Of a stretch of DNA of 64,000 nt, positions 10,950 through 39,152 are shown one piece after another (positions within the stretch are counted from its first letter, which is position 1; each line of letters opens with the position of its first letter). This DNA comes from Trueperaceae bacterium. GTDB lineage: Bacteria > Deinococcota > Deinococci > Deinococcales > Trueperaceae. The position numbers and the translations under genes are program-made. The stretch lies in contig OZ243927.1 of assembly GCA_965213925.1 (NCBI GenBank), positions 224,001 to 288,000 on the forward strand, in the 5' to 3' direction. The notes below the pieces were generated by a model, which did no database searches, was not told the origin of the DNA, and saw nothing but the letters and a program-made list of their open reading frames with translations.

Positions 10950-11034
10950 TGCCGAGAAGGGGACTTGAACCCCTACCTCCTCAACGGAGACTAGCCCCTC
11001 AAGCTAGCGCGTCTACCTATTCCGCCACCTCGGC
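10950..11034 (-). tRNA. tRNA-Leu(GAG)
   Basis: Reverse complement GCCGAGGTGGCGGAATAGGTAGACGCG-CTAGC-TTGAGGG-GCTAG-long variable arm-AGGGGTTCAAGTCCCCT-TCTCGGCA; CCA not encoded. Confidence 0.95.
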
Positions 11035-28721: not shown

Positions 28722-30551
28722 TTACTCAACTGTCACGCTCTTGGCAAGGTTTCTTGGTTGATCAACATCGCAACCTAGACGCGCCGCCGTTTCGTACGCG
28801 AGCAGCTGCATAGCGACGACGTTCACCAGAGGCGAAACAAGCTCATGCGTTTGTGGGGCTCGCATCACAACGTCGGCGTGCTCCTCAATCTGGGTGTCAC
28901 CGTAGTTGGCAAGGGCGATAACGATGCCGTCTCTAGCTTTGACCTCTTGCAAATTGGAGACCGTTTTATCGTAAAGCCTAGAAGCCGTTGCGACGGCGAC
29001 GACAGGCATCTGGTCGTCGATGAGCGCAATTGGACCGTGCTTCATCTCGCCTGTGGCGTAGGCTTCGGCGTGAATGTAAGAGATTTCTTTGAGCTTGAGA
29101 GCCCCCTCTAACGCGGTAGGAAAGTTGATGCTGCGACCTAAGAAGAGGTAGTCGCTGTAATCTTTGAAACGTTCCGCCACCTGAGCGATGTGTTCGCGTT
29201 CTTTGAGGGCGTCCTCAAGTAATCCCGGCGTTTGCCGCAGCGCGTGAATAAGGTTTGCCGCGTCCGCATCATTGAGGGTACCGCGTGCGCGTCCGAGCCA
29301 GATGGCGACGAGTTCAAACGCGGCGACCATCGCGGTGTACGCTTTGGTACTTGCGACGCCGATTTCTGGTCCGGCGTGAATGTAGAGCGTGTCGTCAGCC
29401 TCGCGGCTAATGGAAGACCCTTTGACGTTAAGGATGGCTAAAGACTTTGCGCCTTGACGCTGCGCTTCGCGGAGCGCTTCTAACGTGTCAATTGTTTCGC
29501 CCGACTGCGAAACGACGATGCAGAGCGTACGCTCATCTAATACAGGCTCGCGGTAGCGAAATTCGCTGGCGATTTCAACGTCCACAGGTAAGCGGGCGAG
29601 CTTCTCAATCAGGTATTCGCCGACCATGCCCGAGTAGTACGCGGTGCCCGCCGCCGTCACGATAACGCGGTCGAACGCGAGCGGGTCGAGGTTGAGGTCA
29701 AGCTGCACGTCCATACCGTTCGCGGCGAAGCGGCTCCCAAACGTATTTTGCAGCACGGCGGGCTGCTCGTAGATTTCTTTAAGCATATAGTGTTCGAAAC
29801 CCGCTTTTTCGGCAGCTTCCGCGTCCCAATCTACGGTAGACACCTCGCGCTCTAAGGTCTGCCCTGTAAAGTCGGTGACGGTGAAGCTGTCTTCGCTGAT
29901 GAGCGCCATGTCGCCGTCGTGTAAGAAGACGACTTCTCTGGTATAGGGCAAGAGCGCGGGCACATCGCTCGCCACGAAGTTTTCACCGTCGCCGAGCCCT
30001 AAAACCATCGGGCTCGTCGCCCTCGCCGCCACGATGAGGTCGTGCTCGGCGTGCGAGACGACGAGCGCGTAAGCGCCCGTCACCTGGCTTAACGCCGTGC
30101 GCACAGCAGCGACGAGGTCGCCCTCGTAATGCTCCTCGATAAGGTGCACCATGACTTCGGTGTCTGTCTCCGAGACGAAGGTGTGCCCCTCTTGAATGAG
30201 CTGCTCTCTTAGCGGCACGTAGTTCTCGATAATGCCGTTATGAATCACGGCGAGCTTGCCGTCTTCGGAGAGGTGGGGGTGCGCATTTGTATCGTTAGGT
30301 CTGCCGTGCGTCGCCCAACGGGTATGACCCAAACCCAGCGTTCCTTTGAGCGGGCGTGTCTCTAGCGCCTCCTCTAAATTTCTGAGCTTACCTGCCTTTT
30401 TCACCACGTTGAGATGCGCGAGCGAAGCGTCGCCCCGTGGCGAAATCACGACCCCAGCAGAATCGTAGCCGCGGTACTCGAGCCTCCTAAGCCCGTCCAT
30501 AATCACATCCGTTGCTTGACGGTGTCCAACGTAACCCACAATGCCGCACAT
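28722..30551 (-). CDS. glmS: Glutamine--fructose-6-phosphate transaminase
   Basis: MCGIVG, LEYRGYDSAG, GHTRWATHG, SQSGET and QPRNLAKSVTVE. Confidence 0.97.
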   Translation of the reverse strand: MCGIVGYVGHRQATDVIMDGLRRLEYRGYDSAGVVISPRGDASLAHLNVVKKAGKLRNLEEALETRPLKGTLGLGHTRWATHGRPNDTNAHPHLSEDGKLAVIHNGIIENYVPLREQLIQEGHTFVSETDTEVMVHLIEEHYEGDLVAAVRTALSQVTGAYALVVSHAEHDLIVAARATSPMVLGLGDGENFVASDVPALLPYTREVVFLHDGDMALISEDSFTVTDFTGQTLEREVSTVDWDAEAAEKAGFEHYMLKEIYEQPAVLQNTFGSRFAANGMDVQLDLNLDPLAFDRVIVTAAGTAYYSGMVGEYLIEKLARLPVDVEIASEFRYREPVLDERTLCIVVSQSGETIDTLEALREAQRQGAKSLAILNVKGSSISREADDTLYIHAGPEIGVASTKAYTAMVAAFELVAIWLGRARGTLNDADAANLIHALRQTPGLLEDALKEREHIAQVAERFKDYSDYLFLGRSINFPTALEGALKLKEISYIHAEAYATGEMKHGPIALIDDQMPVVAVATASRLYDKTVSNLQEVKARDGIVIALANYGDTQIEEHADVVMRAPQTHELVSPLVNVVAMQLLAYETAARLGCDVDQPRNLAKSVTVE

Positions 30552-30769
30552 AGAAACTCCTTAATGGTTAGGTATCATCTAATTCGAGCCGGTCTCAGAG
30601 GTTGCAGCGTGTCGCACCCTACGGGGTGATGATACCTAGATAACTCAACCCTTTAGCTCTAAATTGCCTAATTGACCGTCGCTAACCATAGACAAACCTA
30701 TGCCTAGAGTGTAGACCCAACAGCCAGCAACGCTCCGTGACGCCTAACCTTTCAGCGCCAACGTCTCTT

Positions 30770-31097
30770 TCTTTGTTTTGTAGAACTCTATTTTGGGGTG
30801 AACCCTACGACCTCGAGTGAGGGGTTCGTCTCAGGAGGGGCCCGCAGACTTAATCTCGCGTTTTACAGCAGTACAGCAGGTATCATCTGGTCAGAGACGT
30901 TCTCAGTTAATGAAGTACCACTCTTAACATTCACGTTTAGAGATGATACTTACGTGATTCGTTTCTCAACCATCGTGATTGTCACCGCGTATCTGCGTCT
31001 ATCTCTAGCATCACGTTAATCTCAAAAACTGATAACGAAATCTAGAGCCCTCCACCTCGTCACCTAAGCGAGCTTGCCTCGACTTAGGGCTTGCGCT
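30770..31097 (-). ncRNA. glmS ribozyme (GlcN6P-responsive) with large internal insertion; 3' boundary approximate
   Basis: AGCGCAAG-P1(CCUAAG/CUUAGG)-UGACGAGGUGGAGGG ... UCUGCGGGCCCCUCC ... ACAAAAC upstream of glmS. Confidence 0.75.
30874..30960 (-). repeat. Copy of the CACGTAAGTATCAT...ACCAGATGATACCTGCT element inside the glmS ribozyme
   Basis: Aligns by eye over ~80 bp with 39055-39133. Confidence 0.75.
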
Positions 31098-31118
31098 TCC
31101 TCGAGTGTGACGCGCCAA

Positions 31119-31643
31119 CTAACCTCGCTCCCAGGGAGGACGCGCGACTAAAAGTCCGTGCAGACCGCGCAGCACCGCCCGCCGCTCCGGTGAAATGAGA
31201 CCTTCGCGGTCTAAGAGCGGATATAAGAGAATATCACGTCCTAAGCCAACGAGGTGTGAGCGTTGCAAGGTGGCGCTTAGCGGCACGTTTCTGGGCGGAT
31301 AGATAATCGCGTCGTTGATGTCGCGTGCGAGCGGCAGCGCGGTCGTCGCGGCGAGGACGAGGGCGCAGCCGAGCACGAAGCCGCCGACGCCGCCCGCGAG
31401 CGTGCGCAGGGGCGCGCGCAGCTTCGTTTGCGGCGGCAAGTAGCGGCTGCTAAAGCCCAGCGCTAAGCCAAACGCGAGCGCGAGAACGAGCCCGACGAAA
31501 GGGCTGAGTTGCGCGACGAGCAGCAGCGGCTTGAGCAGGAAAACCCCGCCTAAACCGACGAGCAAGCCGACGAGTTTGCGCTGCGCTGCGCAAACCGTCG
31601 TGGCGGCGACGACGAGAACGAGCGTGAGGTCAAGAGGGTTCAT
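31119..31643 (-). CDS. Membrane protein (weak CvpA-like)
   Basis: MNPLDL start, several TM helices and GGVGGFVLG motif. Confidence 0.55.
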   Translation of the reverse strand: MNPLDLTLVLVVAATTVCAAQRKLVGLLVGLGGVFLLKPLLLVAQLSPFVGLVLALAFGLALGFSSRYLPPQTKLRAPLRTLAGGVGGFVLGCALVLAATTALPLARDINDAIIYPPRNVPLSATLQRSHLVGLGRDILLYPLLDREGLISPERRAVLRGLHGLLVARPPWERG

Positions 31644-31776
31644 AGAAGGTCCGACGGGTTGATTCGCGCGAACCAACCCGTCCGAGCGTAGCGAGTGGGA
31701 CAAGAGGGGCGGATGGAGCGACGTGAGCGATTACCGAAGCTTGTTCTCGGTAGTCGGGAATAGAGCGGAATCCGTG

Positions 31777-38977: not shown

Positions 38978-39054
38978 CCATGCTAAACTAGACATCTGTA
39001 GAAGGTCCACCATCTACTGAGATAGGTGAGCGCAGATTTCACAGCTTTGCTGTA

Positions 39055-39133
39055 ACGGAACTTCATCTCTAAACGTGAGTGTCGGTTGGTGCTTCATGCG
39101 GTGAGAGTGTTCGCGACCAGATGATACCTGCTA
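39055..39133 (+). repeat. Copy of the ...TCATCTCTAAACGTG...ACCAGATGATACCTGCT element
   Basis: aacggaacttcatctctaaacgtgagtg...gtgcttcat...tgagagtgttcgcgaccagatgatacctgcta. Confidence 0.75.
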
Positions 39134-39152
39134 TACATGGAGGTCTAGCAAG

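Follow-up and report, generated by a model that had tools for sequence, protein, structure and literature searches.

A predicted glmS ribozyme variant of the Trueperaceae with an extra P2-loop domain, a leader helix, and, in one genus, a dispersed repeat

Upstream of the glmS gene of this Trueperaceae genome, the minus strand at 31105-30800 very likely encodes a glmS ribozyme-riboswitch of a Trueperaceae-like family design that carries a repeat in the tip of one peripheral hairpin (hairpin 2) and for which comparative sequence evidence predicts GlcN6P-dependent cleavage. Coordinates refer to the window, i.e., the whole 64,000-nt stretch of DNA analyzed, and features of the ribozyme and its leader lie on the minus strand. 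In the proposed architecture, the RNA would keep the A↓GCGC cleavage site (arrow, scissile bond), P1, the GACGAGG strand, P2, the P2.2 pseudoknot, and P3 with its P3.1 pseudoknot. Three departures from the canonical form are proposed: an extra domain in the P2 loop, on its 5′ side and preceding a conserved GCGA strand; absence of the P4/P4.1 domain; and a helix that we call P0, formed between the leader upstream of the cleavage site and the strand that links P3 to P3.1. In this genus, a ~120-nt repeat resembling miniature inverted-repeat elements (MITE-like) would, in addition, have landed in the tip of hairpin 2 and folded back on itself, leaving the core untouched.

The downstream gene encodes a 609-aa GlmS (28722-30551, minus strand, with the start at 30551) with Pfam GATase_6/7 and two SIS stretches, and GlmS orthologues were found in 41 of 41 related genomes. 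The ribozyme element lies 249 to 554 nt upstream of glmS, and wherever the element was read in relatives it likewise lies upstream of glmS. On the minus strand, AAGCGCAAG, a hairpin, GACGAGG, and GGAGGG follow one another at 31097-31048; 208 nt of lower-GC sequence come next, and then UCUGCGGGCCCCUCC at 30848-30834. A first-pass annotation of the window had recognized the two halves of a glmS ribozyme here, a 5′ half at 31097-31048 (A↓GCGCAAG, P1, GACGAGG, and GGAGGG) and a 3′ half at 30846-30834 (UGCGG-GC-CCCUCC), and all of these parts are present. It had also placed the halves ~185 nt apart; the long separation is real, but the figure needs correction, as the two P2 strands are 208 nt apart (31047-30840).

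Catalytic core and leader helix

The core was evaluated in an alignment of 29 distinct sequences made with MAFFT (A1), from which we left out L153 (aberrant in its 5′ part and P3 region), L017 (diverged), L022 (without the 5′ part), and the duplicate loci L019, L035, L037, and L039. The alignment has 44 invariant columns, and the window sequence has all 44. Over the 38 proposed base pairs, 90.7% of cells pair, compared with 79.3% after shuffling; none of 500 shuffles scored as high, and slid controls gave 34 to 52%.

The predicted cleavage site, between A-1 (31097) and G+1 (31096), was placed by the Rfam alignment of AAGCGC, the columns of which are invariant in the 29 sequences. The P1 hairpin (31063-31088) was likewise assigned from the Rfam alignment, and five of its six outer pairs change on both sides. 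The GACGAGG core strand (J1/2; 31055-31061) is invariant in the 29 sequences and matches the Rfam consensus. P2 is formed by GGAGGG (31048-31053) and CCCUCC (30834-30839), with 100% of cells pairing and no variation within A1; variants seen by eye include AGAGGG/CCCUCU in L017 and other pairs in other families of the order. P2.2 joins CGCA (31092-31095) to UGCG (30843-30846), with 98.3% of cells pairing and three of four pairs never varying. The CGCA/UGCG pairing had been singled out as a variant of the usual sequence at this locus; the pairing is indeed present, but it is not special to the locus, being the same in 27 of the 29 family sequences and occurring in Deinococcus-like relatives as well. 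Because P2, P2.2, and the core strands show next to no variation within the family, covariation neither supports nor opposes them. The candidate P2.1 strands are all invariant, and the data define no P2.1 pairing.

Directly after P2 comes the P3 hairpin (30818-30833), in which UGAG and CUCA (30830-30833 with 30818-30821) enclose an 8-nt loop; 97.4% of cells pair, and three of four pairs change on both sides (CGAG/CUCG, UAAG/CUUA, AGAG/CUCU, and CGUG/CACG). The P3 loop contains the 5′ strand of P3.1, GAACCC (30822-30827), which pairs with GGGUUC (30800-30805). With a custom anchored script, a P3.1 helix of 5 to 8 bp was recovered in 29 of 29 sequences and in many sequence types (mean of 5.9, versus 4.0 with shuffled partners); on the MAFFT alignment 62.5% of cells pair, a value lowered by misalignment. 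An ACAAAAC motif that had been counted as a later part of the 3′ half does occur but is not conserved in relatives. No P4/P4.1 domain was found between P3 and the 3′ strand of P3.1, where the ten rows read by eye have 12 to 15 nt.

The element thus resembles the canonical glmS ribozyme (RF00234; Bacillus and Thermoanaerobacter type) in its position upstream of glmS, in having A↓GCGC, P1, GACGAGG, P2, and P2.2, in the placement of P3 directly after P2, and in the downstream pairing of the P3 loop as P3.1. Whereas the canonical ribozyme has P4/P4.1 between P3 and the 3′ strand of P3.1, the family variant is without it and pairs the 12 to 15 nt found there with the leader. In this P0 helix, CUCGAG at 31100-31105, 3 nt upstream of A-1, pairs with CUCGAG at 30812-30817, which occupies the canonical place of P4/P4.1. 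For P0 alone, 89.1% of cells pair versus 77.8% after shuffling; none of 500 shuffles, which ignore kinship among the 29 sequences, reached the observed value, and slid controls gave 18 to 49%. Four of the six P0 pairs change on both sides, with variants such as CACGAG/CUCGUG, CGCGAG/CUCGCG, and CCGAG/CUCGG, as well as UUGGG/CCCAA in L009, and across the family the leader strand lies 3 to 9 nt upstream of the cleavage site.

The element starts ~14 nt past the stop codon of an upstream open reading frame of 194 aa (31119-31703), for which no Pfam match was found. Since no promoter-like site was found in the gap between this reading frame and the ribozyme, the ribozyme may be part of a longer RNA, as would suit a helix that draws on upstream sequence.

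Extra domain and dispersed repeat in the P2 loop

Within the genus, the P2 loops of the three species measure 208, 218, and 243 nt, as against 78 to 159 nt in 26 relatives from outside it; the overall range of 78 to 243 nt, with two or three extra hairpins, compares with 24 nt in the Rfam consensus. In the relatives the loop follows a common plan of hairpin 1, GAUAG, hairpin 2, GAAAAYGCGA, and often a hairpin 3. In the window, hairpin 1 (31003-31047) is closed by CUCUAG/CUAGAG, the six closing pairs of which all covary, and it is present in the minimum-energy fold. An AUAG linker (30999-31002; GAUA conserved at ≥90%) leads to hairpin 2 (30865-30998), which folds as a 134-nt irregular rod on the base ACGCAG/CUGCUGU. 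It is followed by AAAACGCGAG (30855-30864), an A-rich strand with the conserved GCGA core strand, corresponding to the block GAAAR-YGCGA conserved in relatives. Folding of 30834-31053 gave hairpin 1 and the long hairpin 2 rod at -69.1 kcal/mol (z of -3.54; 1 of 200 shuffles as good). Hairpin 2 is short in relatives, at 9 to 49 nt in the cleanly parsed rows (the automatic parse failed in 4 of 29 and mis-set the linker in many). Many relatives have a variable hairpin 3 between GCGA and AAGUCUGCGG; this genus lacks it.

In L001 (1480-1720, minus strand), a relative that passes the Rfam cut-off with 49.4 bits, a hairpin separates AUCGAAAA from UCUGCGG. Hairpin 3 of the Trueperaceae-type variant occupies the same site, which thus varies across the whole order.

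The additional length of hairpin 2 in this genus coincides with a dispersed repeat. A repeat copy with inverted ends, defined by genome matches, occupies 30872-30992 (ends approximate) within hairpin 2. A BLAST search with a 135-nt piece of hairpin 2 gave 43 matches in the genome, itself included, and within the whole leader only ~30871-30963 is repeated, in up to 33 copies. The 34 long copies align to a unit of ~113 nt that has inverted ends (by eye, TATAGCrG... and ...CCTGCTATA); the end motif recurs inside the unit, where it pairs with the right end. A nested extra module is found in some copies. Around the copy in the ribozyme, no target-site duplication could be established; CUGCUGUA stands twice in tandem at the right end only, and it stands once in G001. 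Genome-wide, there are 104 repeat core sites. Counts of the exact 16-nt core came to 74 in this genome (G000), 231 in G001, and 90 in G002, the three species of the genus, with a reversed control of 0; elsewhere, there were 12 in a second genus (G005) and 0 in a further one (G006).

The site of the repeat is common to all three species, and in G001 the left end of the repeat can be seen immediately beyond the base of hairpin 2, which points to one repeat insertion before the three species diverged. Judging from these comparisons, about half of the reported "insertion" would be normal for the family, and the remainder would be a small dispersed repeat in one side arm. Because the repeat folds on itself within the hairpin 2 rod, it is predicted to lengthen that arm and to leave the core unbroken. 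The three species keep every core block, together with P1 pairing by different sequences, despite the repeat, a pattern that argues for continued selection on the ribozyme after the insertion.

With its ~113-nt unit, inverted ends, and tens to hundreds of copies, the repeat is similar to MITE-like small dispersed repeats of bacteria, such as the small noncoding repeats of Deinococcus radiodurans. Further points of likeness are the mosaic variants with nested modules and the restriction to a genus (compare the 12 core matches in G005). It differs from such repeats generally in that this copy lies inside a predicted functional RNA and is conserved in site in three species. A second, diverged copy, not picked up by BLAST, lies just upstream of the ribosome-binding site of glmS (30570-30637), with ends assigned by eye (AGGUAUCAUC...GAUGAUACCUA). 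A further copy in the window is found at 39029-39136 on the plus strand.

Distribution and detection among relatives

Leaders upstream of glmS were read in 19 genomes of the family; the same split-looking element was seen in 15, a partial one in 1 (L022), and none in 3. In these last three (L016, L021, and L031, from G020, G009, and G013), the 620 nt preceding glmS showed no ribozyme. The element has therefore apparently been lost, or was never gained, in some lineages of the family and, as far as these leaders tell, is dispensable there. In L016, glmS begins a few bases after the upstream reading frame. In L022 (G019), the 3′ two-thirds of the variant ribozyme are intact from GACGAGG onward, and tandem units of ~14 nt (..UCGAGAyGACGAU..) stand in place of the cleavage site, the 5′ strand of P2.2, and P1; the ribozyme of L022 may be decaying or have been remodelled.

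A 16-nt ribozyme signature was found in 93 of 128 family genomes, in 63 of the 79 high-quality ones, and in 31 of 36 genera, nearly always once per genome (the tally includes one match in the unpublished genome G110), and its reversed control gave 1 match in total. A scan of species genomes with the same signature gave at least 118 loci; among the matches listed, 16 are real ribozymes, and the rest are chance matches in GC-rich genomes. The real ribozymes among the matches listed come from metagenome-assembled genomes of Trueperaceae, Deinococcales, and Deinococcaceae or from genomes labeled "uncultured bacterium."

Thermaceae-like leaders from two other families of the order (L025 to L027, L030, L032 to L034, and L036) show hairpin 1, AUAA, hairpin 2, and GAAAG in the P2 loop and, by eye, a P4-like domain and a 3′-tail P3.1; their ACGAGG is preceded by U or C and not by G. 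The Rfam glmS model matched 0 of these 8 leaders at an E value of ≤0.001. Given that the Thermaceae-like relatives have the domain and the P4-like element together, the extra P2-loop domain probably predates the loss of P4.

At the gathering threshold (37 bits for RF00234), Rfam gave no glmS match in the window. In E-value mode, the model reached 13.8 bits (E of 1.3) and aligned the 5′ half only (the AAGCGC motif, P1, and GACGAGG), and the 3′ half searched alone gave no glmS match; the earlier expectation that covariance models might miss the element was borne out. The difficulty extends to the family as a whole. The glmS model matched 9 of the 41 related genomes at an E value of ≤0.001 (this genome is among the 41, without a match) and 1 of 24 within the family, and its cut-off was reached in none of 25 family genomes, this one included. 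Two short-insert relatives scored 25.6 and 24.9 bits, both below the cut-off, and in their Rfam alignments P3 is wrongly assigned to hairpin 1, and P4/P4.1 to hairpin 2 together with its purine-rich flanks. A profile hidden Markov model built from the 26 relatives outside the genus and run with nhmmer against both strands of the 9.49-Mb genome gave a single match, at 31106-30799 in the window (95.7 bits; E of 3.4e-27), in one alignment that bridges the repeat insert. As the public model finds no family member above its threshold, annotation pipelines will call the ribozyme absent.

Probable function, alternatives, and surroundings of the element

In Bacillus, RNase J degrades the cleaved glmS fragment, and an RNase J orthologue is encoded in this genome (543 bits; cut-off of 400). 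The RNA described here would bind GlcN6P and cleave between 31097 and 31096, and the glmS fragment with its 5′-OH end would then be degraded, probably by RNase J. Ligand binding, self-cleavage, and degradation of the downstream fragment are the general glmS scheme according to PMC5473149. PMC11602151 reports that P4 is dispensable for cleavage in vitro and that purines of the P4 internal loop stack in the minor groove of P2.1, buttressing it, with P3/P3.1 pinning that interface. We infer that the module of GAUAG, hairpin 2, and GAAAA, together with P0, may replace the P4/P4.1 buttress. It is possible, and we suggest it tentatively, that this amounts to a natural and so far undescribed swap of peripheral domains, in which P0, connecting the P3/P3.1 junction with the RNA immediately 5′ of the scissile bond, replaces P4/P4.1 and the purine-flanked hairpin domain of the P2 loop supports the minor groove of the core. 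If so, the ribozyme, unlike the canonical one, would need sequence 5′ of the cleavage site and would hold its 5′ product by base pairing.

The first-pass annotation had read the locus differently, as a canonical glmS ribozyme with a single, locus-specific insertion of ~185 nt in a normally short hairpin, closed by an AGAUUU/AAGUCU helix. The distance between the halves and the Rfam consensus loop of only 24 nt speak for that picture, but we find it scarcely credible in view of the comparative data. The proposed closing helix pairs at chance level (48.8% of cells in the 29 sequences versus 48.3% after shuffling, with 194 of 500 shuffles as high): AAGUCU is the conserved single-stranded lead-in to UGCGG in all relatives, and AGAUUU falls within hairpin 1. 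The loops of the 26 relatives outside the genus are themselves long, with conserved hairpins and linkers, and the genus-specific part is only ~120 nt and consists of the dispersed repeat. As the leader comparison shows relatives to have long structured loops routinely, much of the novelty claimed for the loop at this locus is also gone.

Two further explanations accept the ribozyme ancestry of the leader and deny its activity. The ribozyme of this genus might be a relic, inactivated by the repeat insertion or by misfolding between repeat copies, with glmS regulated otherwise. The insert is large, and the ~120-nt insert and the second repeat copy 230 nt downstream, the ends of which are complementary, could favor misfolding; loss is, moreover, tolerated elsewhere, with the element missing in 3 of 19 family genomes and truncated in 1. 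We nevertheless consider a relic unlikely, as all three species keep every invariant core column, P1 pairs though its sequence differs, and the repeat, placed as it is in the tip of a peripheral hairpin, folds back on itself. Less probable still is a loss of ribozyme chemistry in the family variant as a whole, which would make the leader a different structured element, for example, a protein-binding or purely conformational switch. The missing P4/P4.1, the locking of the nucleotides just upstream of the cleavage site in P0, and the failure of all 25 family genomes to pass the Rfam cut-off would fit such a change, but the cleavage-site motif, GACGAGG, and GCGA are invariant in the 29 sequences, and the P2.2 strands are nearly so, which is hard to explain without a catalytic core. 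The in vitro dispensability of P4, as reported in PMC11602151, also argues against it. We therefore retain the active, family-type glmS ribozyme as the preferred reading.

Deinococcus-Thermus variants of the glmS ribozyme with additional core stems and altered core-supporting substructures were reportedly presented by McCown, Roth, and Breaker in RNA in 2011. The Thermaceae-like relatives, with hairpin 1, AUAA, hairpin 2, and GAAAG at the same place, resemble those variants and keep a P4-like domain; the Trueperaceae-like type is set apart by its loss of P4 and gain of P0. The extra stems are thus probably already known, at least for Thermaceae, and the P4-less, P0-paired architecture may already have been drawn in 2011. 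We found no description of the Truepera-type glmS variant in the literature searched, which covers few subscription papers and provides no proof of novelty. What appears to be new, though modest, is the insertion of the repeat, along with the survey of the family.

Apart from glmS ribozymes, no riboswitch is known to employ its ligand as a catalytic cofactor, and the glmS architecture is regarded as very uniform. Most of a bacterial family, going by the 93 of 128 genomes with the signature, uses a version that lacks P4/P4.1 and has an extra domain and a helix with the leader. This family design can serve as a natural experiment on the exchange of peripheral domains around a fixed catalytic core, and the repeat insertion of this genus offers a natural test of how much extra RNA load a side arm tolerates; the understanding of glmS chemistry is unchanged by these findings.

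Between the ribozyme and the second repeat copy, the leader at ~30640-30795 is partly conserved with G001 (L012), for example, in the block GACGnnGGCGCUGAAAGGUUArGCGUCACGGAGCG, and is absent from G002 (L011); no Rfam family matched this part of the leader. Weak matches to CRISPR-DR64 (13.7 bits) and RAGATH-25 (12.6 bits; E of 0.85 to 5.1; cut-off of 49) at 30766-30797 on the minus strand, with E values of 0.85 to 6.2 overall and scores far below the cut-offs, are probably due to chance; they fall in the A-rich stretch after P3.1. The sole Rfam match in the window at the gathering threshold was an 85-nt tRNA with a long variable arm at 10950-11034 on the minus strand (52.8 bits).
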